A stretch of DNA of 64,000 nucleotides from a virus (lineage: Duplodnaviria; Caudoviricetes). The stretch spans positions 128,001 through 192,000 of IMG/VR virus record IMGVR_UViG_3300023174_003901; one strand, 5' to 3'. The first letter of the stretch is position 1; each line of letters begins with the position of its first letter. The notes below the pieces were generated by a model. That model was not told where the DNA came from and did not search any database. It saw nothing but the letters and a program-made list of their open reading frames with translations. Shown here piece by piece: positions 9,085 to 60,724 of the stretch. The translations under genes were made by a program, and so were the position numbers.

Positions 9085-11160
9085 TTATGATTGGATGATT
9101 TGTTTCAACAACGCTAGACGGCTTTCGCGCACAGGTGCTTTTGGTTGCTGTTGTTGCTTGGCTTTTTCTTGTGCTCGGGCTTTTTCACCCACACGCTTAA
9201 CCATGTCCTGATATTTTTTACCATAGTCGGCTTCTTTAGGTGGCACGTAGTCGTCCTTGGCTTCCGGCAATACAGGATCCACATGCTTGCCTAAACGACT
9301 ACGAATGTGATCTTTTTTGTCTTGGGTAGGAATAAGTTGTTGGACTGCACGAGGTCTATCTCCAGGCTTCCAATCTTTAACTTTGTTAATTTTATATCCT
9401 CTGCCAGGTTCCAACCCAAAAGTTTCTATGTCGCTTTTTGGCAGTCGAGAGCCAATGGTCACTGGCCCGTCTTCCGCCATGCCTTGCTTAATTGGAGGCA
9501 ATCCTCTTAACTTGACATAAGCATCAAGAATATCGGATGCAAAATCTGTATCGTACATGAGCCAGTTTAATCGTTGACGACTTCCTAACTCTTGAATAGC
9601 AATGGCAAAAGCATATCGTTGCACTAAATTGTAAGAGGTAAGTTTAGGATGTTCGGCAAATACTTTTTCTGCTAAATCTTTCGCGTATTTACGGGCAAAA
9701 GAACGGCCAAAGCGTTCGCGAATTTTATCTGTTCTTTGTTGTGGAATATTGTCTTCGCCTTCGTCCACACCTTGCTCAATCACATCAACACCGGCCTTGC
9801 TCTGCGGACTCAACATGCGTGTGATGTCTCTAGCATTGGCTTGAATAATTTGCTTGCCAACTTCAACATTCTGTGGAGTAAGTTCTCTAGCCACTTTGTT
9901 AATTTTGTCAACGACAGGAAGCACTGGGCTTGGTCGAGAACCAAACATGCCTTCTTCCACGCCCTGGTCTTCAATCTGCATCGGATTCAAAGGATCATCT
10001 GTGTAAATAGTTCTTACATCGCTGCCTGCATCACTTAGTAATTCATCAATCATGTCACTTACATCAGAATTATGCTGAGCCTGGAATCCGGCACGTTCAC
10101 CTTGTGTGATATAAATCTTTGCTATTTTTGCTGCCTGATCTAGTTCAGACCTGCTGTAACCATCTTCGCCGCCAAACCTCTTGTAGTTGGCTAAAATTAC
10201 TTTGCCTATCTCCGGTCCAGGGTCTGCCTTGGGCGCCGTCTTTTTGGCAATGCTAATGATTTGATCTAAATCCTCAATTTGATTTGTATTTTCAGGTGGC
10301 CCCATGCCTTGCCACACGTCTGAAACATATCCAGGTAATCCTGTGGTCTGTAAACTCTTGTTTATATCTACAAAAAATTTATTGATTTCCTTCACAGTCT
10401 TAACAATGTTTGTTGCAAGATAGGGGTAATTATTTGATGTGTATTCCTTTGCAGTGTCAAAGAACATTTCAGTAAAGCCCTGGCTTTGCCCAGAGTCAAT
10501 TGAATCCCATCCATATTTTTTACCAATAGACATTAGTTGTTGTTCAACTTGATCGGGAGTAAATTCTATTTTACCACTGAGAAATTGGTCAGGGTCGCCG
10601 ATGTTGGTTGGTATTGGTTTGCCATTGCGGCTAACACCTTTGATTTTTTTTGACCCTTGCTCACTTGCAAAACTCACTGCTACATATCCAGTTACTGGAA
10701 CATATTTAGGAGTTGATTTTTGTATGTTGCCCATCATCTTTTGAAAACGTGGGTCGTCCGTTGGACCTTCCTCTACACCTTGCTCGTCTAGGCCACGATT
10801 GTGACGCCACTGACGAACGCTCTTGCCCCGGTCACGTGCGCTGCCTAGTTTGGGTCTTAGGTCGCCTCTTTTTTCAGTCACGTCTTGCTCGCCAAAGTCA
10901 TCTGCCAACCGATCAAACACAATTTGTTCAATGCGTTCAAAGTCATCGTCTGGATGGAGACCTGCGTCAATCACAACATCGTCATACATGTCTTGCACAT
11001 ATCGGCCAGCAGGAGTGTTGGCACTAAACAACTCATACAATGCGTCAAAGTCTTCGCGGGCCACAATGTTGCGCAGTTCCGCGTCAATTTCACTCATCAC
11101 GCCTTCAGTCATGTCTTTTTCAAACACTTGGGGTAAGTTAAAAAATTCGTTCAGTATCAT
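9085..11160 (-). CDS. multi-module putative internal head polyprotein
   Basis: Starts MILNEFF; linkers DMTEG, DVTEK, QGVEEG (x2), QGVDEG, QGMAED and VRES. Confidence 0.65.
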   Translation of the reverse strand: MILNEFFNLPQVFEKDMTEGVMSEIDAELRNIVAREDFDALYELFSANTPAGRYVQDMYDDVVIDAGLHPDDDFERIEQIVFDRLADDFGEQDVTEKRGDLRPKLGSARDRGKSVRQWRHNRGLDEQGVEEGPTDDPRFQKMMGNIQKSTPKYVPVTGYVAVSFASEQGSKKIKGVSRNGKPIPTNIGDPDQFLSGKIEFTPDQVEQQLMSIGKKYGWDSIDSGQSQGFTEMFFDTAKEYTSNNYPYLATNIVKTVKEINKFFVDINKSLQTTGLPGYVSDVWQGMGPPENTNQIEDLDQIISIAKKTAPKADPGPEIGKVILANYKRFGGEDGYSRSELDQAAKIAKIYITQGERAGFQAQHNSDVSDMIDELLSDAGSDVRTIYTDDPLNPMQIEDQGVEEGMFGSRPSPVLPVVDKINKVARELTPQNVEVGKQIIQANARDITRMLSPQSKAGVDVIEQGVDEGEDNIPQQRTDKIRERFGRSFARKYAKDLAEKVFAEHPKLTSYNLVQRYAFAIAIQELGSRQRLNWLMYDTDFASDILDAYVKLRGLPPIKQGMAEDGPVTIGSRLPKSDIETFGLEPGRGYKINKVKDWKPGDRPRAVQQLIPTQDKKDHIRSRLGKHVDPVLPEAKDDYVPPKEADYGKKYQDMVKRVGEKARAQEKAKQQQQPKAPVRESRLALLKQIIQS

Positions 11161-11837
11161 TTGGCTTCTTCCACGTAGTCTGCACTAGAGTCTGGCTGCA
11201 CAGCCGGACGTCTGGCACGGTATAGATTCACTGCCATCTCGGCTTCATCTAATTCTTTGAAACTGGATGGCATGCTTCGAGTGCCATTGTGAATGGTAAA
11301 CCCTCTGCGTTGATCGCCGTGTATCTCTAGTACTGAACCATCTTCTAGCGGAATAGTCTTGACAGGTGAACTTGCAGGCTCAGGAATGGTACTAACTTGG
11401 CCTTGTCCTGGACGCATCTCATCTACTTCAACATCTTCTTCTTGACTGTCAGGATCTGTGGGATCATTGTCTTCAATGTCTCGAACTGCTTTGTCTTTGA
11501 GATCTTGATCTACTTTGACTTTGTCGGCCAACTGATCCAAATAGTGTGTTAGGTCTTTCTTGACCTTCGAAATCATGTCTTCTTCAATCTCGGACATGGT
11601 TTCTGCCAGGGGCATTTGCCCCACTTCTACATCATCACCAAACATGTAGCCAGCCGGGCTTGCTTTCCGATTGGCATCGCCGCCTAGTACAGGTCCTTGC
11701 TTGGGCATTTTGAACAGGGCCGGCATCTGTGGCACTGATTTCTGTTGTGCGTTCAAGCCTTTCTTGACTGTGGCGGGAGTTGTCTTTCCCTCAATCAAGT
11801 CCAAGCGTTGGAGGATGCTGTAGATATCGTCGCTCAT
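11157..11837 (-). CDS. hypothetical acidic protein, putative head-associated
   Basis: Start MSDDIYSILQRLDLIEG overlaps the dps stop (ATGA); linkers PLAET and VDEM. Confidence 0.6.
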   Translation of the reverse strand: MSDDIYSILQRLDLIEGKTTPATVKKGLNAQQKSVPQMPALFKMPKQGPVLGGDANRKASPAGYMFGDDVEVGQMPLAETMSEIEEDMISKVKKDLTHYLDQLADKVKVDQDLKDKAVRDIEDNDPTDPDSQEEDVEVDEMRPGQGQVSTIPEPASSPVKTIPLEDGSVLEIHGDQRRGFTIHNGTRSMPSSFKELDEAEMAVNLYRARRPAVQPDSSADYVEEAK

Positions 11838-12274
11838 GCTCGTTCGACTTTCAAGTAACTGGTCAGTTGCCAACGATATTTGCCATGAGCACTGAGTCGT
11901 TCTGCAATGAAGTTAGCAATACCTTGTTCGTTGGCGTCATTGGCTTCTGCAAAGCAACGATTCAACAAATCCAACATCTGATCATTGTTGGCCTTGAGTT
12001 CTTCTAACATGAGTCGAGCACGGGGAATCTTTGTCTGCCCTGAGATCTCAGTGAGTTCGCTAAACCGCTCAAAACTTGCAGGCGAATATTCACCTAGGTA
12101 GCGGATGTATTCTGCTGTGGGATCAATGGCTGAGTAAGCATCTTCATATATCTCTTGAAAGAACCCGTGGAGTTCGCTGAAGTCTGGCCCTTCTACATTC
12201 CAGTGGAAGCCATGGGCTTTCAAGTAGTAAGCAAAATTAGTTGCTAATAGAATTTTTAAACTGTCCGCGAGCAT
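11834..12274 (-). CDS. dps: Dps / ferritin-like DNA protection protein
   Basis: LKAHGFHWNVEGPDFSELHGFFQEIYE...DPTAEYIR...HGKYRWQL. Confidence 0.93.
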   Translation of the reverse strand: MLADSLKILLATNFAYYLKAHGFHWNVEGPDFSELHGFFQEIYEDAYSAIDPTAEYIRYLGEYSPASFERFSELTEISGQTKIPRARLMLEELKANNDQMLDLLNRCFAEANDANEQGIANFIAERLSAHGKYRWQLTSYLKVERA

Positions 12275-12449
12275 TTTTGTTCCTTTTGTATTCCTGGGGC
12301 GTGTTAGGCGTCAGGTCCCTAGTATATTTACCACTTAACATTGATCCGCCTGATCTTGCGACCATGCCCAAGGGCTGTGCGATAGTGGCTATACTACCTG
12401 CACTTGAGGTGGCAGCAGACGAATTTTCCAGGATTTCACGTGCTCTCAT
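12237..12449 (-). CDS. small hypothetical protein with CTS-like start
   Basis: MRAREILENSSAATSSAGSIATIA; contains the TAAATA at 12325-12330 upstream of dps. Confidence 0.5.
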   Translation of the reverse strand: MRAREILENSSAATSSAGSIATIAQPLGMVARSGGSMLSGKYTRDLTPNTPQEYKRNKNARGQFKNSISN

Positions 12450-12738
12450 GGGGATATATCCTTAACATAGTATTTTTTATTCTTGCACTGGGTGGGCCTG
12501 AATCCACACGCAGGTTTTTAACTGTTAATCGGGCTTGACTGGGTTCAACCAGTTCATAGCGTATGTCGTACTTGCCTGGCTCAGCATACACAGGAATCAA
12601 CTCTTCCAAATACTGTTCCTGCCAGATGTACGTGCGTTCCACAAACAGTTCGTTGCCCACAAATAATCTATACACAGGCGGCCGATCCTTCCAGTCACAG
12701 TAGACATCACACTTGATCATGACATGCTCGCGGCTCAT
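12436..12738 (-). CDS. hypothetical beta-rich protein
   Basis: Overlaps both neighbours; pattern loosely similar to 22601..23035. Confidence 0.55.
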   Translation of the reverse strand: MSREHVMIKCDVYCDWKDRPPVYRLFVGNELFVERTYIWQEQYLEELIPVYAEPGKYDIRYELVEPSQARLTVKNLRVDSGPPSARIKNTMLRIYPHEST

Positions 12739-14255
12739 TATTCGCTCTTGTTGCCCCAGTTGGCAGCACCTTTTTTACGACACTGAACCAAGGCTCCGGA
12801 CGCATAGGCCGACGGCCATACTTTGTATCTGCTTTTTACTTTGTAATAACAAGCATCTTGTTTTTCATTTATCATCAACTCACTGAACATGGGGCCGCCA
12901 CAGTTGGGACAGTGTTGTTCCTGCACAGATTTATCCTTAAGGCCCTGCACCGCAGTTGTGCGTCGGGGATCAGGAGCAGGTGCAGTGTCGGCACTGGGCA
13001 AGAACTTGACTATTGATTGCTTGGTCAGTGGACCCAATACACCATCCACATCTAAATTGGCATTGAATTTTTTGTTCAGCATCTGTTGTATTCTGCGGAT
13101 TTCGTCTGAATTCTTTTGGCCTAGTGTTTCGTTAACAAATTCTTGTATGGTATCTTTTGCTACGTCTTGCTGACCTGGTAATGTATCAGAAACGGTTATC
13201 ATATTTTCAGGAACTATTTGTACGGGAACGCGGCCTTGGTAGCCTGCTACTTGATAGGCCAGGAACCGGTGATTGCCATCTATTACAAAAAGTTGTCCAT
13301 TATCGTTCCACACCAGCAAAGGTTTTAACACACCATTTTGTTTTAATTCTGGTAAAAGTTTGTTAGTTACCCAATCAGCAATTTTAGGATCTTTCATTGA
13401 TTTATGCTTTTCCCACATGCGCAATTTATTGAACGGTACCAAGGTAGACGGCAAACTTTTCTTGATGTTATCATCTATTGTGGCACCTCTATGATTGGTA
13501 TACACAATCACTGGTTTTTGTTCTGACCCTTCTGCTACATCTTCATTTTTCTTTTTGTTCTTTACACAGTTGGGATACCTTTTGCCAAACATGGTTTTCA
13601 TGCCTTCTTTGTGATAGCCTTTCCAGCAGGCTTCTTCTAAATCCACGCCCTCGTCAGTTTTCTTGTTGGCATTGATGTAGGCACGATACACCGCGGCTGC
13701 TGATGCCTTGCCGGCTGCCCGGGCACGTTGTTCCATGGCCACTGCGGCCTGTATCTTGTGTGCATGGCTCCGACCACTGTTGCGTATCTTTGCAACACTG
13801 GCACGTGCGTCTTCAACTGTGGCAAACTTCAAGCCAGTTATGGTGCCTCGAGGATTCTCATCTGTGTATAAATCACTATGTTTCTTTGAATCAGCAGGTT
13901 GCCCTGGTTTCCTAGCAATTCGTGGGCTTTCCGTCACAGGCCGTTGCCAGGCACGGGCCGGAACGTTAAGTGTTTTTTCCAAATGTTTTAGTGAAGCATT
14001 TGTCAACAAGTCTGTGCTGTCTCTACCGGGTTGATAATACCACTTGCCACTTTTGGTTTGTCTTAGCCCCATAATCTTTAAATCAAGATGGTTGAAACTG
14101 CGGCCACCTCGAGCCACATCAAAGAAGTAGAGTGTGTCAGCAGGGTTGGTCACTGATTCTGTCTTGGGCTTTTTGCCGGCCTTTCGCATGGCAATGGCAA
14201 TAGCGGCCTGCTGTGCAGGGTTGGCTGCTTCTGAGAAGAAATCACCGAGTATCAT
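12738..14255 (-). CDS. multi-module polyprotein: ParB/Srx-like domain, peptidoglycan-binding-like domain, CxxC knuckle, two-Cys micro-modules
   Basis: MILGDFFSEA start; KPLLVWND...VIDGNHRFLA; IRRIQQML...LDVDGVLGPLTKQSI; HCPNCGGPM; linkers VTES, TDEG, LEEA, VAEG, IQEF, VQEQ and INEK. Confidence 0.7.
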   Translation of the reverse strand: MILGDFFSEAANPAQQAAIAIAMRKAGKKPKTESVTNPADTLYFFDVARGGRSFNHLDLKIMGLRQTKSGKWYYQPGRDSTDLLTNASLKHLEKTLNVPARAWQRPVTESPRIARKPGQPADSKKHSDLYTDENPRGTITGLKFATVEDARASVAKIRNSGRSHAHKIQAAVAMEQRARAAGKASAAAVYRAYINANKKTDEGVDLEEACWKGYHKEGMKTMFGKRYPNCVKNKKKNEDVAEGSEQKPVIVYTNHRGATIDDNIKKSLPSTLVPFNKLRMWEKHKSMKDPKIADWVTNKLLPELKQNGVLKPLLVWNDNGQLFVIDGNHRFLAYQVAGYQGRVPVQIVPENMITVSDTLPGQQDVAKDTIQEFVNETLGQKNSDEIRRIQQMLNKKFNANLDVDGVLGPLTKQSIVKFLPSADTAPAPDPRRTTAVQGLKDKSVQEQHCPNCGGPMFSELMINEKQDACYYKVKSRYKVWPSAYASGALVQCRKKGAANWGNKSE

Positions 14256-14518
14256 GATTTTTTCCTCTTTGTAGACACATTGATGGCTGGGCCTGAGCGT
14301 TCAGGATTGGGATCTTGTTTGCGTTTGCGGCTAGCGGCACTTGCACGACCTTTCTTGCCCAGTGAGTGTGCCTTGGAGGCAGGCAAGCACTTGGGTTTGC
14401 CTTCAGAATCTGATCCTCTGGCACAATCGCCGCGGATTTTACCATCAGGACCAAATCGTACCCATTTGTCTTTAAACCACTTGCGTAGGTTTTCGTTCAT
14501 GAATTCATCGGCTCTCAT
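14252..14518 (-). CDS. small basic protein with CTS-like start
   Basis: MRADEFMNEN|LRKWFKDKW; two Cys; TAAGTA 5 nt upstream of the ATG. Confidence 0.65.
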   Translation of the reverse strand: MRADEFMNENLRKWFKDKWVRFGPDGKIRGDCARGSDSEGKPKCLPASKAHSLGKKGRASAASRKRKQDPNPERSGPAINVSTKRKKS

Positions 14519-14542
14519 ATGTTTACTTAGCCCTGTCGGCTT

Positions 14543-15013
14543 TTACCTTATTCTGTGCAGTAGATAAACTGTGGTGTTGGCCATGTCACTGCGATCCAAT
14601 CTATAACCCCAGGCCTGAGCATAGCGTTGCACCAGGCGATCATAGAGATTGCTTCGGCTCATGGGTTTCTGTCCAGGCTCAACATCTTTGTCGGCTGTGA
14701 AACGCAGGGTTTCAGGCTGTTCCATTTCTATGAATTGACCAATAGCGGTCAACACTGTGGCAAACACTCGCTGAGCATCACCGGCTCCGGAAATGTCCAG
14801 GCGATTGTCGCGCCAAAATTCAACTACCCAATCTTCATTGTCGGCCACATCAGAATCAGTATAGAAATTGATTGTGAGATTGGTGCCATCTGGCAGTCGT
14901 GCTAAGGCATCATATCTAGGATCCTGTTCAGCACCGGGCTCGTCCTGATTGTTGTCCCAGTGAAATGCATAGGGTTGGTCAAATGCTTCTAAGATAATAT
15001 CTGTGACCCTCAT
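14543..15013 (-). CDS. hypothetical protein, possibly GNAT-like fold, with CTS-like start
   Basis: MRVTDIILEA; SGAGDAQRVFATV...LRFTADK...SRSNLYDRL. Confidence 0.5.
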   Translation of the reverse strand: MRVTDIILEAFDQPYAFHWDNNQDEPGAEQDPRYDALARLPDGTNLTINFYTDSDVADNEDWVVEFWRDNRLDISGAGDAQRVFATVLTAIGQFIEMEQPETLRFTADKDVEPGQKPMSRSNLYDRLVQRYAQAWGYRLDRSDMANTTVYLLHRIR

Positions 15014-16452
15014 TTTTTCTTTGCCTTTGCTCTACCAGCCTTCATATTGGCCAACCAGTGTGCCATGCGTTGCTTTTCACCTGAACTATTTTTAGCAGTT
15101 TTTCTCAGACTGCTTACTGATGCCTTGGTGTTCACACCTGAACGCTTGGCAAGTCCTTTGCGGCCAGGATTCTTGCCATCAGCAAAGTTTTCTGCTACAC
15201 CTTGCTTGGGAATCAACAATTCAGGCATACGATACTCACTGACATCTACTGGATATGGCTGTAGTGATGCTTTGTATAATTCGGCATACTGTTGTTTTTC
15301 TTCGGATGTCTTGGCTCTGTAAAACTTGTTGGCAATGGCCATGTCGCCCACCAAAGTTCCTGGTGGAATTGAAATCTTTTTTGGACCATAGTATTTTAAT
15401 TTGTCAGAATCTTTGTTGGTCAAACTGTAAAAGGTTGATTCCCATTTGTCCGGGTGCAAGGCATATTGTGCTGTTGTTCTTTCTGGCACAAACTCTGCAA
15501 GTGTATCTGCACCAGGATGAAATTTACCTAACTTGGATAAACTTATAGCAGTATCATTGCTTTCGCCTTCCGCAACAACCGGTTTGACAGGAACATAGGC
15601 AGGCACACTGGTCATGCCTGCTTCTACCGCGGCTACAGCACGATGGTTGCCATCAATGATCCAACCCTGTGAATCAACCACAATGGGCATACTTTTTAAC
15701 ACTGATCCAATCCGTGGTATCAATTCTTGAACTTTGTCATTGTCCACCCAGTTCACACGATTGTAAGGATCCGGTTCTTCGCCATCAGGATCCAAGTTCA
15801 GTTGTGACAAGGGAATACTCTTTAATTCCCACTCAGGATGATCAGTTATGCTGTATTCAATGTCAAATGCTTCTGGAGCATGAGCACGTTTGACATAATC
15901 AAGCACTTGGTCGGCCGCCATGGATTCTGTTATGCCTGGCCTGCTTTGTGCCACGGCCACATAGGCAGGACCAACGTAGCCATCAGGATACCGGGCAAAG
16001 TGTTGTATGGTTCTATGCCAACCTTCCAACAGTTCATAACCGTTGCCAAATTTAATTAATATTGCAGGTTCTCGACTCACACCGCCCTGTTGTATCAATG
16101 CCGCTTGTGTGGCATGTCTTTCAGCATCTTTGGGTATGCCCATACCCATGTCACTGGTGCCGCCTGCACGACCAATTAACTTTCGTTTGCTCTTCGGCTC
16201 AAACATGTCCATGGTAAACTTCATGTTGGGTACAAGTTGCCAAGGGTTGACATTAGGACTTAGTCCTGCATCTGCGATCATTTCGATAATTTCATCTTTG
16301 ACTGCTCTACTATCAGTGGTGTAATTTTTATTTTTACCGCGACCTTTGTACAACCAGTCTTGCACAACATATTCTGGCCATGTGGGAACAATGCTTCGGA
16401 TGTATTGATACATCCTGTCTCTGAGTTCTATTAAAAATTCACTTGCTCTCAT
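15010..16452 (-). CDS. polyprotein with two ParB/Srx-like domains and two further modules
   Basis: MRASEFLIEL; EPAILI...ELLEGWHR and MPIVVD...IIDGNHRAVAA; linkers GITES, VVAEGE and QGVAEN. Confidence 0.7.
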   Translation of the reverse strand: MRASEFLIELRDRMYQYIRSIVPTWPEYVVQDWLYKGRGKNKNYTTDSRAVKDEIIEMIADAGLSPNVNPWQLVPNMKFTMDMFEPKSKRKLIGRAGGTSDMGMGIPKDAERHATQAALIQQGGVSREPAILIKFGNGYELLEGWHRTIQHFARYPDGYVGPAYVAVAQSRPGITESMAADQVLDYVKRAHAPEAFDIEYSITDHPEWELKSIPLSQLNLDPDGEEPDPYNRVNWVDNDKVQELIPRIGSVLKSMPIVVDSQGWIIDGNHRAVAAVEAGMTSVPAYVPVKPVVAEGESNDTAISLSKLGKFHPGADTLAEFVPERTTAQYALHPDKWESTFYSLTNKDSDKLKYYGPKKISIPPGTLVGDMAIANKFYRAKTSEEKQQYAELYKASLQPYPVDVSEYRMPELLIPKQGVAENFADGKNPGRKGLAKRSGVNTKASVSSLRKTAKNSSGEKQRMAHWLANMKAGRAKAKKK

Positions 16453-19400
16453 ATCATCACCGGCAACACTTCAATATCTGCACCTGGTGCAGGGGATAAC
16501 GATCCTTGACGACGTTGATCCTGCAACCAAGTTTGTGCAATGCGATTGGCATCTGCTTGATTGTTGCCTACACCACGGAAGCGCCATACTTCTTCGCCAT
16601 CAATCATGACTCGCCACTGTCCACTAAAACTATTGCCAGGCGGTGCCGAACTGGCCTGATCTGTGGTGCCAAACAAGTCTCTGAATGAGTAATCCGTGTT
16701 GCGGCCATTGGTACGGTCCGGGAAGTTCTGTGCCACATCCATGGGAACTTCGGGAATTTCCTGCTGTGCCGCAACTGGATTGAATATCACCTGCAGACTC
16801 AGTTGACGGGCATCAACACCATGTCTGCGGGCTGTGTCGTCTCGTACCGCCAGGGCCTGATCCTGACTGGCACCACGTACGGTGTTGAGTGTCTCGTCAG
16901 TCTCACGATCCACTATGCGCCAGTCACGTGGAATTTGAGAAGGTTGAGGTCTGATCTCTTGGAATCCGTAGTCTTCAGTAGTTGTGGGCAGGCCAGCGGC
17001 TGCCAGCCACTCTCCATAAATTCTGTTGGCATCTCTGCGATCGTCAGCACGGAATCTAAACACAGGGTTAGTATTGAACCGATCCACAACTGCATAGTTG
17101 GCGTTGGTTGATTGACTTGGCAAGCCCAGGCGGTTCTCCATGTCGGTCTGTGTGCCTACGTTGGCCCCACTGCCTGTACCTCTAGTTCTCACACCGTAGA
17201 GATCGTGCCGTCCAGTGGAAATAAGTGCCATGGCTTGACGTTGTGCCGCGCCACGATCAGTTATGGGTTGTCCGCCCTGAAGAAGATTAACCGTACTGTT
17301 GCCAGTTTGTCTGTTGTAAACTTCCCAAGGCCCAGGTCCGGTAGGCCGCAAAGGGTTGGACGCGGCGTCTTGATCGGTATTACCGCTGCCATCCACAGGT
17401 CTAGCACCAAACAACAAGCGAGCATCTACTGTGCCTATGCCGTGGGGACCAAAATTGATATAATCATCTAATCTTGTGTTTACATCTGATTGATTGCGAG
17501 CAGAGAATTCAGTGTCGGGGACGGCCTCACCAGTGCGTCTATCGAACAGTTCATAGGTTCCTGTGCCGGTCTGTGGTGCGCCAGGTTTGTCTGGTTGTTC
17601 ATCGTAGGGCCGTAAAACTTCAGCATCCATTTGAGCCAGAGTGTTGACCAAGAGTGGTTCGCCCCATTCTTTTGCAGCCTTCTGTTTGGCTTCTTCTTCT
17701 GAGGTAGCAACCACTTCCACTGTGTAACTATATTGGCCAGCATTCTTGCCGTATTTGTAAACTTTCCACCACATTTTTTGGCCGTCAGTCTTGCCACGTT
17801 TGATATTGCGTTGTAACTGTGCCTGTTTGATAAAACTACGCAGGGCCGCTTTGGGAATCTTGCCGGCCACATAGTCACTAAAGTACTTGATGGTGTCGTC
17901 ATCTCGGTTGTTTTCAGTCAACATTTTGTAGAGTTTGGTCAGGTACTCTTGACGATACATTTCAGGATTTAGTGCCGCACTCATGGCCACAGTAAATCTC
18001 AACAGAGTGTTTTCAATCTTGTCAAAATTTTCGTCCAACCAGTCGCCACCGGGTGAGCGGAATTCAATGTGTCCATCCTTGGTGTTGATTGATGTATACT
18101 TGCTGGTGATGCCTGAGTGTATGGCCTTGCTGGCCAACTGATCCAAGTTGCCCTTCATCTTGTCCAACAACTGGGCGGCATTGTCAGGATTGTCACGCAC
18201 AGCCCGTTTCACAATGTCCAGTGCTGATTTGGCATAGGTGTTGCCACTACGACCAAATGCATCCAGCACATATTTGTCACCCATGAGCAGGGCCAGTTTA
18301 ACAAAGTCCAAGTTTTCTCTACTGTAGTCCGGCACAGAGATATTGATGTGCAGGCCAGTTGAATCATTGGTGTAACAACCATACTCCTTGGCCCAGCGTT
18401 TGACTTTGTTCAAGTCGCTGAGTATTTCATCAATAGGCAAGGGTGGACTCACAAACTCCAGGCCTTGATCGTTGGGATCATCTGGTTCCAGGCTGCCATC
18501 TGGTTCCACCACATATCGTATTTGAGTTGGGCTGGGACGGATTGTACTGCCTGAGTGATAGTTGCCACTGGCTCTGACATCGCGACCAATGGCATTTTCA
18601 AACTCTTGTGCCACATCTTCAATGCTGGCTTCGCCACCGCTTTGGGGGTCGCTCCAGTGCGGCCAACTCATGCTGTAGGCATTTTCAATTTCGCTCATGT
18701 TACTTAGATCTGCACCATCCAACCAGTCGCTTTCGTCATAACTTTCTTGATTTTCTTCGCGGAACTCTTCGTAGGCTGTTTGATATTGATCACTCACAGG
18801 ATCAGCATGAACATTGGCAGCATATTCTTCCAGGGCTTCTGTGCGTTCCAGGTCAGATTTTTCCTCTGGATTCCACTCTGACTCGTCTACGTTTTCTTTA
18901 ACCCATTGATATATGTATTCCTCACCCCCACTGTCCCAGTCGTCGGAGATCTTTTGATCCAACCATTCTGTATAGTCGTTCCGCATGCTGTCACGCATCT
19001 CATCGCAACTGCGGCGACTGTTCCAGTCACCATCATAGAAAAAGTCATATGCATCCTGTATGCTACGGCAACGTTGGTCGTAGTCGTAGTCGGGTTCCTG
19101 GTCGGCATCACCGCTGCCGCCTTCAACATTGGGCACAATCATTTCAAATTCCATACCGGCTATGGCGCCGGTCTTGGCAGCCTCTCGACGCAGGTTCTTT
19201 GAACCCATATTGATTTCAAACAGGTCTTGTTGTTTGAATTGAGCCAGTTCCTCTGCTAAACTTTCGTTTAGTTTGGCGGTCAACAATGCAGGACGACCTT
19301 GAGCGTCTGTTTGTAGTCCTAGTTTGTTGGCTTCTTTGCCCACAGCACCTGGTCGAACGTCTCGAGTCAAGGCCATGATAAAGCGTGGATCACGGGCCTG

Positions 19401-20546
19401 TTTCTTTGTGGGAATGTATCCTGAGGCTTCCTCCAATGGCACATGGGCAAACATCTCAGGATGTTTCTCTGCCCAGTGACGCATGATGCGACCTGCCATG
19501 GCATTGGCTTCATCTTCATAGGGACTGCCTGTCTCTCCGGCATTGTCGGGTAGTTTTTGTTTCTCTGCTTGCTTGCGATGTGTAAACTCATGGGCCATGG
19601 TTCGCAGGATGTCTAGAGTGTGGCGGCCTGCTGTGGCCAAGTGTAGCACATTGTTTTCGGGCTCATATTGACCAAACGATCCTGTCTGTTCACTCCAGTC
19701 TGTGCTGGTATGCAATTCAATACGGGGTGATTTCTTGATACCCAGGTACTCTATACAACTCTGTGCAAACTGATTGATAGTGTCTTGTAGTCCATCTTCA
19801 GACTCTGTGGTAAAGCCATAAGTCACATGTGGCTTGGCACGTTCATCAATACTGAGTTCTTGGTCCTTGGCAGCATTTCTGGCATCTACTAACTTTTGAA
19901 TATAACCTTGTGTGCGCAACATCTTGAATGCAAGATTCTCAGGACCAAACTCGCCATGCTCATCAAGACCGCTTTGGCGTAGTTGTCGAATCTTGGCCAT
20001 CAAATCAGCCATGACCGCATGGTCTTGAGTCTTGATAGCATCTTGGATGCGTTGTTTTAAATCTTGATACTTGCTACGAGTGTTTTGATCCACAACATCA
20101 GCACGTTGACGACGTGGTACTTGAATCCAGTCGTTGCGGAGCAAACTGTATTCACCTTGTGTCACATGTGGTTGGTCTACATCTTGCACATACAGTTCAA
20201 CATCATAGCCGCCAATCTTGATGTTGTGCTGATTGTTATATGCGTACTTTTTGGCATCAAACAATTCACGATATACCTCATCATTGGGTATGTCAACCAC
20301 AAGGTGCAGGTCTATGTCTGAATTGGGGGTATATGTGTAAGCGGCGTTTGATCCGCTGAGTGTGATGTCTTTTAGATCGAGATCTTTCACGCCCAGTGTT
20401 GCACGAAAATCATCTGCAATTTTCATCAGTGCGTCACGCACTTGGGGCTTCAAATGCTCGTCCTGGCCCCATATTCGGGGGTTTAGACGAGCATTGAATT
20501 TTACAGCGTCGGAAAGTTTATAGCGGTCTAACTCATGGAGATTCAT
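16449..20546 (-). CDS. 1365-aa polyprotein: Pol-beta-like nucleotidyltransferase, HExxH metallopeptidase, amidoligase (COOH-NH2 ligase), C-terminal repeats
   Basis: LSGSNA...SDIDLHL...VELY; TMAHEFTH...EDEAN; GMEFE...EPDGSL...LEFVSPP...TNDSTGLHINIS...IEFRSPG; TAAATA 5 nt upstream of the ATG. Confidence 0.8.
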   Translation of the reverse strand: MNLHELDRYKLSDAVKFNARLNPRIWGQDEHLKPQVRDALMKIADDFRATLGVKDLDLKDITLSGSNAAYTYTPNSDIDLHLVVDIPNDEVYRELFDAKKYAYNNQHNIKIGGYDVELYVQDVDQPHVTQGEYSLLRNDWIQVPRRQRADVVDQNTRSKYQDLKQRIQDAIKTQDHAVMADLMAKIRQLRQSGLDEHGEFGPENLAFKMLRTQGYIQKLVDARNAAKDQELSIDERAKPHVTYGFTTESEDGLQDTINQFAQSCIEYLGIKKSPRIELHTSTDWSEQTGSFGQYEPENNVLHLATAGRHTLDILRTMAHEFTHRKQAEKQKLPDNAGETGSPYEDEANAMAGRIMRHWAEKHPEMFAHVPLEEASGYIPTKKQARDPRFIMALTRDVRPGAVGKEANKLGLQTDAQGRPALLTAKLNESLAEELAQFKQQDLFEINMGSKNLRREAAKTGAIAGMEFEMIVPNVEGGSGDADQEPDYDYDQRCRSIQDAYDFFYDGDWNSRRSCDEMRDSMRNDYTEWLDQKISDDWDSGGEEYIYQWVKENVDESEWNPEEKSDLERTEALEEYAANVHADPVSDQYQTAYEEFREENQESYDESDWLDGADLSNMSEIENAYSMSWPHWSDPQSGGEASIEDVAQEFENAIGRDVRASGNYHSGSTIRPSPTQIRYVVEPDGSLEPDDPNDQGLEFVSPPLPIDEILSDLNKVKRWAKEYGCYTNDSTGLHINISVPDYSRENLDFVKLALLMGDKYVLDAFGRSGNTYAKSALDIVKRAVRDNPDNAAQLLDKMKGNLDQLASKAIHSGITSKYTSINTKDGHIEFRSPGGDWLDENFDKIENTLLRFTVAMSAALNPEMYRQEYLTKLYKMLTENNRDDDTIKYFSDYVAGKIPKAALRSFIKQAQLQRNIKRGKTDGQKMWWKVYKYGKNAGQYSYTVEVVATSEEEAKQKAAKEWGEPLLVNTLAQMDAEVLRPYDEQPDKPGAPQTGTGTYELFDRRTGEAVPDTEFSARNQSDVNTRLDDYINFGPHGIGTVDARLLFGARPVDGSGNTDQDAASNPLRPTGPGPWEVYNRQTGNSTVNLLQGGQPITDRGAAQRQAMALISTGRHDLYGVRTRGTGSGANVGTQTDMENRLGLPSQSTNANYAVVDRFNTNPVFRFRADDRRDANRIYGEWLAAAGLPTTTEDYGFQEIRPQPSQIPRDWRIVDRETDETLNTVRGASQDQALAVRDDTARRHGVDARQLSLQVIFNPVAAQQEIPEVPMDVAQNFPDRTNGRNTDYSFRDLFGTTDQASSAPPGNSFSGQWRVMIDGEEVWRFRGVGNNQADANRIAQTWLQDQRRQGSLSPAPGADIEVLPVMI

Positions 20547-20560
20547 GAGTGTATTTACCG

Positions 20561-21499
20561 TTAAGCGGCTTTGGTGGCCTTGACTTTCTTATCTGCCTTT
20601 TTATCTACTTTTTTGCTGGTTGCAATCACTTTTGCTTCCACAGGCACCGCAGTTGTTTGTGCGGCAGCGGCAGCAATCTGATTGTTCACAGCAATTTCAT
20701 GCAGGTCTTGATACAGTTTGTCCTGTGTTTGATAGTCAAACACATAGGTACCTGTATGTCGGAGCAACACACGGCGATCAATCCAGACTTGGCCACCCAG
20801 GTCACGCCAGTTTTCACAGAATGTCCAGTCTTCTGAGTAGTAACGATTTTCACGCACTGCTGTGTCAAAGTAGGTTTTCATGTAAGGGTTAAGAACAGGG
20901 TCCAGACCAATATCATTGGTAAATGGCTTCACAGCAGGGTGTGCATTGAGTTTCTCAAACACTTCACGCTTCATGAGCAAGAAGCCCGTGCCGGTCTTGG
21001 TAACTTCAACCAAGCCTGATGGATCATCTTGTGGTGTGCCAGGAATGCCGTTCACGCACCATTTCACTGGCAACGACTTCATTGGATACAATCCGCCTAC
21101 CACATCCTTTTGATGGTTCAACATGGCCAACAAGTGCCAGGGCTCCCAACCAATGTCAGCGTCAATAAACATCAAGTGTGTGGATTCTTTTGTGTGCAAG
21201 AACTTGGCAGTGAGTGTGTTACGTGCGCGGCTAATAAGTGATTCATTAGTCATGGTTTCTACTGTCCAATCAATGCCCAGTTGACGAGCAGTGTTAGCCC
21301 ACTTGATATAACTCATGAATGTTGATTCAGTCAGCATACCACCATAACATGGCATGCAAATATGCACTCGTGTGGTTTTCAAATAATCAAGATTTACTTG
21401 AATTTGGTTCTGTGGTTGTCCATTTGGAGTTTCCTGCGGTGCCAATGGCACGTCTGAAGGCAGTGTGGCTGGGGGTGTGGTTCCGGTTTGGGTTATCAT
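20561..21499 (-). CDS. GT-A-fold glycosyltransferase-like protein
   Basis: HICMPCYGG, ESLISRARN, LMFIDADIGW (DxD), GTGFLLMKREVF, YYSEDWTFC, LRHTG. Confidence 0.75.
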   Translation of the reverse strand: MITQTGTTPPATLPSDVPLAPQETPNGQPQNQIQVNLDYLKTTRVHICMPCYGGMLTESTFMSYIKWANTARQLGIDWTVETMTNESLISRARNTLTAKFLHTKESTHLMFIDADIGWEPWHLLAMLNHQKDVVGGLYPMKSLPVKWCVNGIPGTPQDDPSGLVEVTKTGTGFLLMKREVFEKLNAHPAVKPFTNDIGLDPVLNPYMKTYFDTAVRENRYYSEDWTFCENWRDLGGQVWIDRRVLLRHTGTYVFDYQTQDKLYQDLHEIAVNNQIAAAAAQTTAVPVEAKVIATSKKVDKKADKKVKATKAA

Positions 21500-21548
21500 A
21501 AGTTCCTCGTTAAAATTGTATAATATTTAACGAGTTTAGCACAGGGCG

Positions 21549-22586
21549 TTATTTTTTGCGACCTGCACAATGAGCACGTTGACTAAAACCTCGAGGATTG
21601 GCACAATTGATACTGCTCTTGTACTTTTGACTCCACTTTTCTTCTATGTAGTCTTCACTGACCGGAGTATCTGCGGCAGTCCATTCAAAATCACTGTCAC
21701 GCACTCCAAACTTTTTGCTGAGTTTGGCCAGTAGTGCATCCAGTACTGTTGCGGGCACATTCTTGGCCACCACACGCCGGCCACTACTGCGAGGATCAGG
21801 ACGATAGAATATGTCAATTCGTTTGGGATTAACATTGTGTGTTTCATCTACATTGTTGCTGTTCAATTGGTCTTCAATATCACTGCCAATTTCGTGTCCG
21901 GCCACACGCATGCCCAGTGTGCCCATGGTTCCAAGTTCTGTGGCGGCGGCCAGTCTTCCGCCCAAGGCCGCACCCAGTGCAGGTAAGAATTCATTCAGTT
22001 GTTCACCAATGGCTGTGTCCAACATTTTAACAACTGTGGCTGCCAGTTTAGGATTGGTTTGTGTTTTGGGATAAAGGCTCATTACCAAGGCTGTCTTGCG
22101 TTTGTCATTCAGTGTGGGCCAGGCAGTACGAATTTCTGTAGCCGACGTCATGCCAGGACCAAACTCCACAGTGGGCAAGTAAGTCATGTAAGCGTGTCGG
22201 TTCATGGGATAAAGAACGTCTTGTCCTGCCAGTGGTTGCAGATACGCTGGGTTGCCATCTTTTTTGATGCCACCTGCTTGTGGCGGCTTGTTGGCGTCTT
22301 TTTCTGAACGCACAAATATCAATTGTGTATCTTCGGGATTGTAATTTTTGGTAATTTCTTCAGCACGAAATGGTGATTTAACTTGATAAAAGTCTCCGGG
22401 CTTGACTCCAGCCAACTGGGCTAGTTTTTCTTTTATTTTAAAAGGAAACGGACGCTGACTTGTGTCATTGGTGGCAGCCACTTTGATATCGGCACCAGGA
22501 AACGCTTCTTGTGCAGATTGATAAAGTGCGTGGTGTCCGGCGTGAAAAGGATGAAATCCGCCAGGCATGATAACCAATTGTTTCAT
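21549..22586 (-). CDS. HIGH-superfamily (cytidylyltransferase-like) domain followed by cleavable modules
   Basis: PGGFHPFHAGH, FVRSEKD, TSATEIR; then QLNEF, NVDET and YIEEK linkers. The real start MKQLVIM lies 5 nt after TAAATA. Confidence 0.7.
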   Translation of the reverse strand: MKQLVIMPGGFHPFHAGHHALYQSAQEAFPGADIKVAATNDTSQRPFPFKIKEKLAQLAGVKPGDFYQVKSPFRAEEITKNYNPEDTQLIFVRSEKDANKPPQAGGIKKDGNPAYLQPLAGQDVLYPMNRHAYMTYLPTVEFGPGMTSATEIRTAWPTLNDKRKTALVMSLYPKTQTNPKLAATVVKMLDTAIGEQLNEFLPALGAALGGRLAAATELGTMGTLGMRVAGHEIGSDIEDQLNSNNVDETHNVNPKRIDIFYRPDPRSSGRRVVAKNVPATVLDALLAKLSKKFGVRDSDFEWTAADTPVSEDYIEEKWSQKYKSSINCANPRGFSQRAHCAGRKK

Positions 22587-22600
22587 ACCTGTATTTAGCG

Positions 22601-27415: not shown

Positions 27416-27649
27416 TTATTTCTTTTCGACTTCGAGTTTCTTGTGTTGCTTGACGTCTTTACACGTTTGTTTAACAACACCTTTGGCATCCTTTACAGGC
27501 TGGCCATCTTTGACAACGTCAACACAGACCCGCTTGGTTTCTTTTTGTGCTTTGGCTGCTTCTGCCTTGGCTACGTCTGCTGAGTGTGAGTCAGCGGCCA
27601 ATGCCGGGACACAAAACATTAATCCTGCTACAAATATAATATTTTTCAT
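27416..27649 (-). CDS. small secreted protein
   Basis: Signal-peptide-like MKNIIFVAGLMFCVPALA; two Cys in the mature part. Confidence 0.65.
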   Translation of the reverse strand: MKNIIFVAGLMFCVPALAADSHSADVAKAEAAKAQKETKRVCVDVVKDGQPVKDAKGVVKQTCKDVKQHKKLEVEKK

Positions 27650-29355: not shown

Positions 29356-29374
29356 GTGCTCCTTCTAATATTTA

Positions 29375-30094: not shown

Positions 30095-30103
30095 GGTTTG
30101 TCC

Positions 30104-41870: not shown

Positions 41871-42620
41871 TTATTTTCCAGCCACTGCCAGTGCGGCGCC
41901 TTTGTTGAAACTGGGACTCCAGGGACTGTTGGCCTGAACCAAACCTTTGCGCTTGCTCCAATTGTAGCCAGCACGATGTCCTGAGCAGTCCTTGGTACAG
42001 GTTGAGCCCAGGAACTGTAATTCACTCAATTGCTCACGTCCTTTGATGCCAATGACCATTGAGCGTTGATACTCAGTTTCAGGATCTTCCAGGTCCCATG
42101 TGCCTGAATACAGTACTGATTCTAATGGATATGCCTGTAACAGTTCTTCAGGAGATTCGTATGCGTTTTGTTCCACAGCATCTCGTCCTTGCATGATCAC
42201 CAGGGTGCCGTCAGGAATATTATCAAACCATCCGTGGTCAGCAATGTCGTTGATGCTGGTGTTTATGACTAGTCCGGGCTGTTCAAGTTGTCTGTAGTCT
42301 AGTTCATTGACATCAGCCTGCATGTGTTCCACACCTGAAATATTCATATCTTGTTGCAATTGCTGACCAGTACGCAACCATTCGCCTCGTTGTTCTACAT
42401 CCACAATTCGATCAATAGGCACGCCTGTTCTGCGTAGGATTGTGCTGAGATTGCTGTACCAAGAGCCCAGTATGTAAGCAACAGGTACTGATTCAACGCC
42501 CTGTTGTTCCAGTATCAATTTGAGTTCACGGGCCAGCCACAGTTTGCTGAACACCAGATCCGGCGTGTAACTGCCCTCTAAACTAGGGCCGCTGGATTCA
42601 AAGATATCACCCAGATTCAT
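41871..42620 (-). CDS. methyltransferase-like domain plus C-terminal two-Cys module, CTS-like start
   Basis: MNLGDIFES; ILGSWY, VDVE, LVINTS; QLSEL|QFLGSTCTKDCSGHRAG. Confidence 0.55.
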   Translation of the reverse strand: MNLGDIFESSGPSLEGSYTPDLVFSKLWLARELKLILEQQGVESVPVAYILGSWYSNLSTILRRTGVPIDRIVDVEQRGEWLRTGQQLQQDMNISGVEHMQADVNELDYRQLEQPGLVINTSINDIADHGWFDNIPDGTLVIMQGRDAVEQNAYESPEELLQAYPLESVLYSGTWDLEDPETEYQRSMVIGIKGREQLSELQFLGSTCTKDCSGHRAGYNWSKRKGLVQANSPWSPSFNKGAALAVAGK

Positions 42621-43049
42621 TTAGTTGGCCTTTTGCCCGCGATCTTTTTCAGTGATAGGACCGCCTACTACCCAGCCCGCACAGGTTCTGGTTCCAGCAC
42701 ATTTAAAGTGTAGAAAATTGCAGTAGCCAAGATCACTCAAGTTTATTGTGGCCACAGCGTCTGCATGTTTTTCATCGCCTTGGATTCCTGACTCGATACA
42801 CTTGCGCATACTGTCACTGGCATCAAACGCCGCACAGTTGCCGCAAAGCATGGTCTTTACAGTTTTTTCTGGCACCGCCCAACGCTTGGCAGCACCTGCC
42901 CAATAGTCGCCTGGCTCTAGTGGATTAGCCGGGCCGTAGTGATAGTCGTCAATGGCTGTTTGGCGATTTTTAAGATTTAAGGTGATATCATGCGTGGCAA
43001 TAGGACAGCCCTTTTGCACCGCTTCCACAAGATTGATGTACTGTCTCAT
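42621..43049 (-). CDS. Cys-rich hypothetical protein with CTS-like start
   Basis: MRQYINLVEA; CGNCAAF, GYCNFLHFKC, RTC. Confidence 0.65.
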   Translation of the reverse strand: MRQYINLVEAVQKGCPIATHDITLNLKNRQTAIDDYHYGPANPLEPGDYWAGAAKRWAVPEKTVKTMLCGNCAAFDASDSMRKCIESGIQGDEKHADAVATINLSDLGYCNFLHFKCAGTRTCAGWVVGGPITEKDRGQKAN

Positions 43050-43057: not shown

Positions 43058-43972
43058 TTAGGCCTTTTTGGGCAATGCTTTGTAGTTGGATTTCTTGTCA
43101 GCGCGATTAAACTCTCGTGCTACTGATTGTTTGATGCCTACTTTGCGAGCAAACTCGGGATTGTGCGCAGCCGCTGCCATTGTGCGGAACTGTGCTTGGC
43201 TTGTGGACTTTTCATTCAAGTCGCCTTCGTGTACTCCGGTATCTGCCATAGCATGGCCCACAGCATGGCCGTGTGCTCCTCCGGCCACAGCACCCTGTGC
43301 CACGTGTCCTGCCGCTTGGCCAGCACGTTTTTGCCAATTAGGGTCAGGAGTAAAAGACTTTTTAATATTGTCCCATACACCTTCTGTTAAATCTTCTGCG
43401 GCCCATGAGACGTAACTATCGCCATTGATGTCACCAGCACGTATCACAAACACGCCACCGTTGTCGTAGCCGCCTTCGTCTTCGCCAATTTCCCAGCCCA
43501 TTTTTGCCAGTGCGGCTTCAATTTGCATTTGTGTTGCTTCGTCTCCGGCCCACCACATTCTAGCGTAGTTATGTAAGGCATCGTCTTCACCGCCACTGTC
43601 ACCATCATCGGCTGCAAATTCATTTAGGCCTTCGCTCAAGTCCTCATCTGAAAAGGCCATAAAATCATATGGTCCCCACTTTTGTCCTGTGCGACTGTCT
43701 ATAGTGTCATCGTGATCACCATATTCATAGTAGTCATCACTGTAGATTTCCACACCGTCAAAGTCACCATTGTAATCAATATGCAGTTTACGTGTTTTAC
43801 CATCAGGACAAACAATGCCGCGATTTAGTAAACGTTCAACATCTTGTTGACTCTTGATACCTTTTTGCAGACTACCTGTGTCAAAGGTACCATTGTACCA
43901 GGCCGAGGCCAGGGCTTGGAAGTAGTTGCCTGAATCTCCGCCACCTGAGGGTGCAAATTCTCTCAGTCTCAT
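43058..43972 (-). CDS. multi-module putative internal head polyprotein
   Basis: MRLREFAP start; internal DLSEG, LNEFA, DLTEG, GVHEG and DLNEK. Confidence 0.65.
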   Translation of the reverse strand: MRLREFAPSGGGDSGNYFQALASAWYNGTFDTGSLQKGIKSQQDVERLLNRGIVCPDGKTRKLHIDYNGDFDGVEIYSDDYYEYGDHDDTIDSRTGQKWGPYDFMAFSDEDLSEGLNEFAADDGDSGGEDDALHNYARMWWAGDEATQMQIEAALAKMGWEIGEDEGGYDNGGVFVIRAGDINGDSYVSWAAEDLTEGVWDNIKKSFTPDPNWQKRAGQAAGHVAQGAVAGGAHGHAVGHAMADTGVHEGDLNEKSTSQAQFRTMAAAAHNPEFARKVGIKQSVAREFNRADKKSNYKALPKKA

Positions 43973-60717: not shown

Positions 60718-60724
60718 GTTGTAT

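Follow-up and report, generated by a model that had tools for sequence, protein, structure and literature searches.

Candidate head cargo of a T4-type jumbo phage: a gene cluster with capsid-type leaders and prohead-protease-type linkers

Background

The window analysed here is a stretch of 64,000 nucleotides, bases 128001-192000 of a 200,246-bp phage contig. Between its positions 9085 and 22586 lies a cluster of genes whose products begin with a shared N-terminal leader, followed by unrelated mature parts, and in several of these proteins the modules are separated by recurring linkers that end in Glu. The locus raises the question of what purpose such leaders and linkers serve. The original prediction held that the genes encode strings of effectors that are packed into the prohead, cut apart there and probably ejected into the host. 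The reading that we favour on sequence evidence, with a probability of roughly 60%, is that they encode head cargo of a T4-type jumbo phage, which would be addressed to the capsid and cut by the prohead protease. Every gene of the finding lies on the minus strand; positions refer to the window unless genome coordinates are named, and a slash within a peptide marks a candidate cut.

Packaging directed by a capsid targeting sequence (CTS) and processing by the protease gp21 are textbook knowledge for phage T4. The T4 CTS is MKTYQEFIAE, and gp21 cleaves after L/I-x-E, its action being directed by residues 8 and 10 of the CTS. The major capsid protein of the present phage shares ~65% identity with its counterparts in PA5oct, Vibrio phage 2.275.O and Sinorhizobium phage Phosso, and its DNA polymerase is 49% identical to that of Phosso; from these two proteins the phage was judged to belong to the T4/Rak2/PA5oct-like lineage, together with Atu_ph07-like T4 relatives. 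Identical proteins are encoded in the window and on a metagenomic contig of 330,017 bp. The phage is therefore a jumbo phage, the 200-kb contig is probably an incomplete genome, and further leader genes may exist. Megablast gave no DNA-level match of the region among cultured phages, and a linker-rich homologue matches cultured phages only through its last small module, so that no published virion proteome applies. In the comparisons below, L003, L091 and L092 are related loci, L093-L171 are IMG/VR loci, and P-numbers (e.g. P0154) denote homologous proteins or contigs.

Results

A shared N-terminal leader

The leader follows the consensus M-(R/K/I/N)-x-x-(E/D)-(F/I/L)-hydrophobic-x-E and mostly comprises 9 residues (range 8-19). 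Twelve genes have leader-type starts, seven within 9085-20546 and five elsewhere in the genome, the doubtful MNLHEL of a 1365-amino-acid (aa) protein being counted among them. The N-termini that had been quoted at the outset are all present on the minus strand, including those that recur in the genes at 41871, 42621 and 43058 and in a superoxide dismutase (SOD)-like gene. Ordered by start position, the leader-type genes are the following (pI, isoelectric point):

Start 11160, MILNEFF; 9085..11160, minus strand: 691-aa modular protein, predicted cargo; open reading frame (ORF) with leader residues 1-19 and about six modules
Start 12449, MRAREILE/N; 12237..12449, minus strand: 70-aa basic protein; mature part pI 10.6
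Start 14255, MILGDFFSE/A; 12738..14255, minus strand: 505-aa modular protein; ParB_N-like module and small Cys/basic modules
Start 14518, MRADEFMNE/N; 14252..14518, minus strand: 88-aa basic protein; phrog_23735, E = 5e-14; pI 10.9
Start 15013, MRVTDIILE/A; 14543..15013, minus strand: 156-aa acidic protein; mature start AFDQPY
Start 16452, MRASEFLIE/L; 15010..16452, minus strand: 480-aa modular protein; two ParB_N-like modules and a very basic tail of pI 11.9
Start 20546, MNLHEL (doubtful leader); 16449..20546, minus strand: 1365-aa polyvalent protein; nucleotidyltransferase, HExxH zincin-like motif, amidoligase, variable C-terminal region
Start 42620, MNLGDIFE/S; 41871..42620, minus strand: 249-aa protein; no family match
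Start 43049, MRQYINLVE/A; 42621..43049, minus strand: 142-aa protein; the L091 homologue starts MRNLIRLVE/A
Start 43972, MRLREF; 43058..43972, minus strand: 304-aa protein; the module follows QGVAEG-N or EGMSE-NS inside other polyproteins
Start 60717, MRKHIDLLE/A; 60175..60717, minus strand: Fe/Mn SOD-like protein, 180 aa; Pfam Sod_Fe_C, E = 1e-20
Genome start 100638, outside the window: further leader gene, MRFKEIFTE

The genes had been described as consecutive, and seven such starts do fall within 9085-20546; the series is nevertheless interrupted, as four genes of the interval carry no leader:

11834-12274: Dps/ferritin-like gene
12436-12738: gene without leader
20561-21499: glycosyltransferase-like gene
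21549-22586: cytidylyltransferase-like gene

A six-frame scan of the 200-kb contig with the pattern M[RKIN]xx[DE][FIL][FILMA], followed by at least 50 open codons, returned 11 matches, 9 of which are true N-termini and 6 of which lie within 9-16.5 kb of the window. The pattern occurred at 6 of 234 gene starts and at 3 of 1278 internal Met residues (Fisher p = 7e-4), in a count based on a greedy gene set that missed three leader genes. A contig-wide scan did not find the signature in replication genes. The same leader residues are encoded by differing codons, which indicates that the constraint acts on the peptide. The leader is similar in sequence to the T4 CTS and one residue shorter, and it also resembles the N-termini of T4 gp24 and gp22 (MAKINELLRE and MLKEQLIAE, respectively). 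Relatives have syntenic clusters in which as many as 13 of 17 genes in a row bear it.

Linkers at module borders

The 691-aa protein contains four linkers of the form QG(V/M)xE. Its parts are listed here with the number of borders of homologue alignments (high-scoring segment pairs, HSPs) found at each linker:

Residues 21-91, helical module; residues 152-386, alpha/beta module; then small modules and a basic C-terminal tail
11104..11160, minus strand: leader MILNEFF...DMTE/G; candidate cuts after Glu14 or Glu19
10765..10782, minus strand: linker 1, QGVEEG, residues 127-132; 24 HSP starts; 2 mismatches to a 17-mer of relatives (see below)
9949..9966, minus strand: linker 2, QGVEEG, residues 399-404; 17 HSP starts and 23 HSP ends
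9757..9774, minus strand: linker 3, QGVDEG, residues 463-468; 12 HSP ends
9469..9486, minus strand: linker 4, QGMAED, residues 559-564; identical to a site in the acidic prohead-core protein

Within the proteome, which amounts to ~64,000 residues, there are seven QG[VMIL]xE motifs: four are in the 691-aa protein, one (QGVAEN) is in the 480-aa protein and one in the acidic head-core protein, while the last is probably fortuitous. The linkers originally read in the 691-aa and 480-aa proteins are hence real and account for five of the seven sites. The 113 metagenomic homologues of the 691-aa protein each cover 9-68% of it, except for one full-span protein (74% identical), and the alignment borders accumulate at the linkers. 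In an AlphaFold2 (AF2) model (mean predicted local distance difference test score, pLDDT, 61), residues 21-91 and 152-386 form confident domains, while low-confidence coil spans 92-135, 387-420, 443-485 and 553-567, with one linker in each (linker 1 in the low-pLDDT part 122-135). Together with the alignment borders, the model supports the assignment of the linkers as module borders in disordered coil.

In the first set of homologues, G[VMIL]xE was observed 474 times against 94 expected. The linker consensus in this set is (E/K)-Q-G-V-A-E-G, with up to 10 copies per protein. In homologues of the modular and 1365-aa proteins, modules of GNAT, ART, deaminase, chitinase, LysM, zeta-kinase and SET type are joined through the same linkers. 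Among orthologous linkers P2 and P1' vary, and Q, G, V/M/I and E are kept. The first 16 leader residues of the 691-aa protein are identical on ~35 metagenomic proteins with differing bodies. A chance origin of leaders and linkers was considered and rejected on the enrichment statistics of the motif scans.

Shorter junctions of the same type occur in the two other modular proteins:

13926-13937, minus strand: VTE/S of the 505-aa protein
13527-13541, minus strand: DVAE/G of the 505-aa protein
Residue 176, minus strand: GITE/S of the 480-aa protein
15565-15579, minus strand: VVAE/G of the 480-aa protein
15187-15204, minus strand: QGVAE/N of the 480-aa protein

The 480-aa protein has 2485 homologues, many with PF02195, and the HSP borders lie at residues 161-180, 281-300 and 411-430, matching GITE176, VVAE295 and QGVAE421. 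In P0154, residues 32-110 of the 505-aa protein are joined straight to residues 240-440 at PVTE/QKP. DVAEG, VVAEG and VTES, which had been proposed as junctions, accordingly sit at boundaries where homologues gain or lose modules.

Fold searches with the AF2 model of the 691-aa protein gave mixed weak matches with TM scores <0.3 (glutamine synthetase, GGDEF/cyclase-like, TRADD-N), and a search of its modules in the ESM Atlas gave nothing usable. The alpha/beta domain at residues 152-386, confidently modelled and weakly matching palm-like (GGDEF, cyclase, primase) and TRADD-N-type folds, may represent a new domain family.

Leader and linker Glu in register

The strongest evidence in the sequences is that leader and linker place their Glu identically in front of the same module. 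Modules that have their own leader gene in one phage are internal modules of polyproteins in another, and the residue that follows the leader Glu is also the residue that follows the linker Glu before the same module. Thus, MRVTDIILE/AFDQPY corresponds to GVAE/AFDQPY, and in other polyproteins AFDQPY is preceded in register by GVAE, SVAE, GVVE, ELPE or NVSE. Likewise, MILGDFFSE/AANPAQQ corresponds to GVAE/AANPAQQ, and xxE precedes the mature N-terminus AANPAQQ of the 505-aa protein inside four other proteins. The 88-aa module is internal in P0078 and P0081-84, where EG(V/M)AE linkers follow. A further case is provided by the cytidylyltransferase-like protein of the window:

21549..22586, minus strand: cytidylyltransferase-like protein, start MKQLVIM, no leader; Pfam CTP_transf_like, E = 7e-4
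21639-21647, minus strand: YIEE/K, preceding the C-terminal small Cys module (DUF6321-type) of this protein

Here YIEE/KWSQKYK compares with MKINEILTE/QWSQKYK, as in P0077 and P0079 the DUF6321-type module directly follows the leader MKINEILTE/Q.

Over 56 distinct internal cases, [VMIL]xE precedes the mature N-terminus in 28, compared with a background of 1.7% (p ~3e-34); the exceptions are mostly low-complexity matches or misassigned leader ends. In the 480-aa protein, a hydrophobic-x-E linker stands before the module at residue 296 in 14 of 14 distinct contexts, and in one case a leader directly precedes this module. The basic tail module at residue 422 (NFAD) has hydrophobic-x-E before it in 13 of 14 distinct contexts, written MNE, INE, MQE, LNE or VAE with unrelated residues further upstream, which indicates that the rule of hydrophobic-x-Glu, then module, holds beyond the canonical linker.

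The head genes and their protease

The head genes of the contig begin with the portal; a 72-aa gene, the gene of an acidic protein of 297 aa, a protease of the gp21 family, a scaffold-like coiled-coil protein and finally the major capsid protein follow. T4 genes 20-67-68-21-22-23 have a corresponding order, which makes the small, acidic and coiled-coil genes candidate equivalents of gp67, gp68 and gp22 by position and composition, not by sequence homology. The prohead protease, encoded at genome 23771-24418, matches phrog_207 (E = 3e-56), is 37% identical to T4 gp21 (E = 2e-21) and keeps the GE-x-x-HP and GVSSRG motifs of gp21. Both signatures of the cargo genes recur here. The 72-aa gene between portal and core, in the gp67 position, starts MILNEIY, sharing its first five residues with the leader of the 691-aa protein, and QGMAED is found in the acidic core protein, whose gene lies immediately upstream of that of the protease. 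Among 73 head modules of relatives, whose proteases are 73-97% identical, most small genes begin with MILNE(I/L)Y; in the acidic protein, x-G-M-x-E-(D/G/A/N) is retained around residues 85 and 170, its Glu invariant and its P2 variable. In T4, gp67, gp68 and gp22 are substrates of gp21. The gene in the same position of PA5oct, gp150, starts MKINDIITE, and its product was found in PA5oct virions by mass spectrometry; proteolytic processing was not analysed in the PA5oct paper.

The linker as a joint in the DNA

In L003, L091 and L092, almost all QGVAEG sites use the codons CAA GGT GTG GCG GAA GG(C/T), even though GCG makes up only 6-8% of the Ala codons in these loci. The exact 17-mer CAAGGTGTGGCGGAAGG is present in at least 120 IMG/VR stretches; 98 of 103 copies are in the QGVAEG frame of ORFs, and the flanks are unrelated. 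Including its rare Ala codon, the 17-mer reaches up to four copies per locus and is spread over more than 100 viral contigs. The junction has thus been homogenised or exchanged at the DNA level in this lineage, most simply by recombination at the joint, and the fixed linker DNA of relatives suggests a second likely role of the linker as a recombination or shuffling joint.

Leader and linker could then be shuffling joints in the DNA and nothing else, the proteins staying uncut and the peptide motif being a by-product. Besides the near-uniform codons and the exact 17-mer between unrelated flanks, the coincidence of module borders with the linker and the presence of one 16-residue leader on many different bodies would fit such an account. 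We nevertheless consider it unlikely. The window holds no exact copy of the 17-mer, only three copies with 2-3 mismatches (0.14 expected), and its linkers differ from one another at silent sites yet all keep Q, G, V/M and E. Selection therefore also acts on Q-G-(V/M)-x-E as a peptide, and a purely DNA-level origin was rejected for the window linkers. Junctions that lack the 17-mer (MNE, INE, MQE or LNE before NFAD) are still hydrophobic-x-E, the Glu residues of leader and linker are in register, and the motif is kept at orthologous positions of head-core genes, where no shuffling occurs. Exchange at the DNA level is more likely a layer added to the head-cargo reading than an alternative to it. 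A single 17-18-nt junction might even be recombination joint and prohead-protease site at once, forming a plug-and-play effector platform in which a captured module is packaged behind the shared leader, cut free and delivered, and which would be common among uncultured T4-like jumbo phages of fresh and marine waters. This extension is tentative, and we would sooner bet against it than for it.

The 1365-aa protein and points against the reading

Several observations weigh against head cargo that is cut into modules. The 1365-aa protein matches Pfam NTP_transf_2 and Amidoligase_2, and its HExxH motif was read in the sequence, with no Pfam peptidase match. It has at least 1742 homologues, among which ART, GNAT, deaminase, chitinase, ParB and M48 peptidase (Peptidase_M48) domains are added. 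QGVAEG-type linkers are absent from its core and from 112 of 120 homologues, and in the remaining 8 they are confined to C-terminal add-ons; that this protein is cut apart is therefore doubtful. Its start, MNLHEL, had been listed as a leader but has no Glu at positions 8-10, and the N-terminus MN(L/I)xELD belongs to the conserved nucleotidyltransferase domain and recurs in stand-alone homologues of cyanophages and Maribacter phages, which makes a leader on this protein doubtful as well. The alignment breaks at TTE/S (~252), LEE/A (373) and LNE/S (428) are weak evidence for junctions; for LEEA, which had been proposed as a linker, the break is all that was found. The protein is best named a polyvalent protein.

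Beyond this protein, linker-bearing proteins without an N-terminal leader exist (the cytidylyltransferase-like protein here, P0035, P0037 and P0044), and hydrophobic-x-E is a short, common motif. Conservation of the linker is explicable without a protease by the fixed linker DNA of relatives and its rare GCG codon. Several predicted products are acidic (pI 4.4-4.7), unlike the basic internal proteins of T4. The 691-aa and 480-aa proteins had no match in the collection of cultured phages searched by tblastn. PA5oct, the nearest phage with mass-spectrometry data, shows a single leader-type protein, gp150, in the 148 kb scanned, which is too sparse for a test.

Some of these points suit another explanation, namely that the proteins are polyvalent effectors in the sense of Iyer et al. 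(2017), packaged or delivered by another route and either left whole or cleaved by proteases of the host or by the HExxH peptidase that they carry, with linkers that are flexible spacers. The combination of nucleotidyltransferase, HExxH and amidoligase in the 1365-aa protein is of this kind, as are the ART, GNAT, deaminase, chitinase, ParB and M48 peptidase domains of homologues; embedded metallopeptidases have been proposed as processing agents (PMC5512222), and some linker proteins have no leader. Passive spacers would, however, not be expected to hold an invariant Glu and a hydrophobic P3 over hundreds of contexts. A peptidase domain is missing from most leader or linker proteins, HExxH being restricted to the 1365-aa protein and no peptidase motif being present in the 691-, 505- and 480-aa proteins, whereas the motif fits the specificity of the encoded protease family and recurs in head-core genes. 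We regard delivery by another route as quite improbable for the set as a whole.

Late-promoter-like elements and leader genes elsewhere

The sequence TAAATA-N3-9-ATG, which resembles the T4 late promoter TATAAATA as a consensus match only, was found upstream of the portal, small core and tail genes as well as of the 1365-aa, cytidylyltransferase-like, SOD-like and MRFKEIFTE genes. TAAATAC lies 4 nt 5' of the ATG of the 1365-aa gene and also occurs upstream of the cytidylyltransferase-like gene, and ATAAATAC lies 4 nt upstream of that of the SOD-like gene. The sites are:

Window 20547-20562: TAAATA(C) site
Window 22587-22602: TAAATA(C) site
Window 60718-60731: TAAATA(C) site
Genome 25660-25674: TAAATA(C) site
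Genome 27446-27462: TAAATA(C) site
Genome 100639-100652: TAAATA(C) site

Should these elements, which precede the ATG by 3-9 nt, be late promoters of the T4 type, the 5' leader of the transcripts would be almost absent, leaving no space for a Shine-Dalgarno sequence. The elements fit late expression of the cargo genes.

They also bear on whether the N-terminal signature could act in the cytoplasm (in regulation, as a translation start context or for another partner), on proteins that are not virion components. Metabolic-looking modules such as the SOD-like and cytidylyltransferase-like proteins could indeed act in the infected cell. The signature, though, is kept as a peptide despite differing codons, is common to the head gene in the gp67 position of this phage and its relatives, is shared with the PA5oct virion protein detected by mass spectrometry, is not in replication genes, and has late-promoter-like elements upstream of several of its genes. 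A cytoplasmic role for the signature is, on balance, highly improbable.

The SOD-like protein combines a shortened N-terminal hairpin domain with a capsid-type leader, and an antioxidant enzyme as possible virion cargo is unusual.

Other genes of the interval

Two genes lie between the 691-aa and 70-aa genes:

11157..11837, minus strand: ~226-aa protein; start at Met13 of the listed ORF, the ATG overlapping the Dps stop codon
11834..12274, minus strand: Dps/ferritin-like gene, no leader; Pfam Ferritin, E = 2e-18

The ~226-aa protein has a 16-aa N-terminal stretch that ends LIE/G, and hydrophobic-x-E at residues 14-16 is kept in the syntenic post-ferritin genes of L003 and L091. The Dps/ferritin gene adjoins cargo genes in L003, L091 and the P0104 contig as well; its position in the cluster is kept in at least three related phages, always followed by a gene of ~200-240 aa whose N-terminal stretch ends in hydrophobic-x-E at 14-16. 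Small leader genes occupy the position of the 70-aa gene in L003 (MKIKDVIRE) and L091 (MRAHEIMED).

The ParB_N-like matches of the 480-aa and 505-aa proteins are weak in this phage, PF02195 being found in many homologues, and sequence searches against the PDB gave marginal ParB matches only. The small Cys/basic modules of the 505-aa protein are common to T4-like cyanophages. In Synechococcus phage Bellamy (L008, genes 122-123), they are fused in a 619-aa protein without QGVAEG linkers, which sits between the tail-fibre and large terminase genes; a neighbouring 51-aa gene starts with the CTS-like MKSFKQFQE. The small basic products predicted for the cluster have a pI of 10-12. Judged from sequence, the cargo repertoire would be that expected of injected host-takeover and anti-defence proteins.

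Elsewhere in the window, at 28582-30868, three adjacent paralogous genes encode proteins of ~240-257 aa with Gly/Ile-rich repetitive N-termini (e.g. GISIGSGINIG).

Discussion

The head-cargo reading suggests the following route. The leader would act like the T4 CTS and bind the scaffolding core, so that the protein is built into the prohead. The gp21-type prohead protease, cutting after the Glu of hydrophobic-x-E, would strip the leader and cut the 691-, 505- and 480-aa proteins at their exposed (Q)G(V/M)xE/(G/A/D/N) linkers. The freed small modules, several of them very basic, some ParB-like and some enzymes in relatives, would stay with the DNA and probably enter the host. Since the same cut site terminates both leader and linker, a module encoded by a separate gene in one phage and strung into a polyprotein in another could still yield an identical mature product. 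In relatives, the fixed 17-18-nt linker DNA probably allows modules to be exchanged by recombination exactly at that site. The finding is well backed by the comparison of sequences. Packaging and cleavage are what we infer from the motifs; ejection into the host with the DNA is suggested by analogy with T4. For the effector strings of the original prediction, the motifs, the gp21-family protease, the borders in coil and the Glu register agree with packing and cutting, while the core of the 1365-aa protein, without linkers, does not.

If this reading is true, the different proteins that T4-like jumbo phages inject number in the dozens instead of three or four, and they are made from modular precursors whose architecture is readable in the sequence. 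The leader and the hydrophobic-x-Glu rule would predict virion cargo and its mature ends in thousands of uncultured phage genomes, which would point to a large reservoir of candidate proteins for early host takeover and anti-defence. They would also provide portable tags and cut sites of natural origin with which foreign proteins could be loaded into T4-type capsids. With a recombination joint and a protease site coupled, selection would act on one short sequence as DNA and as protein alike.

Comparison with known systems

T4's internal proteins (IPI, IPII, IPIII) and its Alt protein are similar in having a short leader that ends in hydrophobic-x-Glu (MKTYQEFIAE compared with MRASEFLIE here), a gp21-family protease, unrelated mature parts behind a shared leader, and gene sets that vary between relatives. 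They differ in number, a handful in T4 against at least 12 leader genes here, and in leader length, mostly 9 residues here. Strings of modules with internal (Q)G(V/M)xE sites and many acidic or enzyme-like products are further differences; the mature parts found here have no homology to the T4 proteins, and the present cargo is known from sequence alone.

The polyvalent proteins that Iyer, Burroughs, Anand, de Souza and Aravind (2017, PMC5512222) described from phages and conjugative elements, and for which packaging and injection are predicted, resemble the present proteins in that a single polypeptide unites unrelated domains of conflict type (ParB, nucleotidyltransferase, zincin, amidoligase) and is encoded by a portal/terminase phage, and their GNAT, ART and deaminase domains occur in homologues of the proteins described here. 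An embedded metallopeptidase was proposed for them, whereas most modular proteins of the present phage have no peptidase of their own. Neither that paper nor the jumbo-phage survey describes a shared capsid leader or a prohead-protease-type site between modules. The statement that the present arsenal goes far beyond T4 is fair with regard to scale, although packaged multi-domain polyvalent proteins had already been published there.

In phiKZ, 201phi2-1 and SPN3US, a diverged gp21-type protease cuts many head proteins after the Glu of a three-residue motif. Glu-directed cutting, propeptides with several sites and a large mass of packaged and ejected protein are the points of likeness. The motif there is S/A/G-x-E as opposed to hydrophobic-x-E (V/M/I/L at P3) here, the substrates are conserved paralogue families rather than shuffled modules, and no common leader or fixed linker DNA is known for them; PHROG and Pfam gave no link of the window proteins to phiKZ families. 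Retroviral Gag-Pol is also a single product cut at short conserved sites during particle maturation, but protease fold, virus type and assembly route are unrelated, and the likeness is an analogy only.

A search of one paper library found no publication on a shared leader combined with a prohead-protease-type linker joining shuffled modules, and a search for the linker peptide returned an unrelated fungal paper only. We class the system as the internal-protein logic of T4 combined with polyvalent proteins, and as new in that variant.

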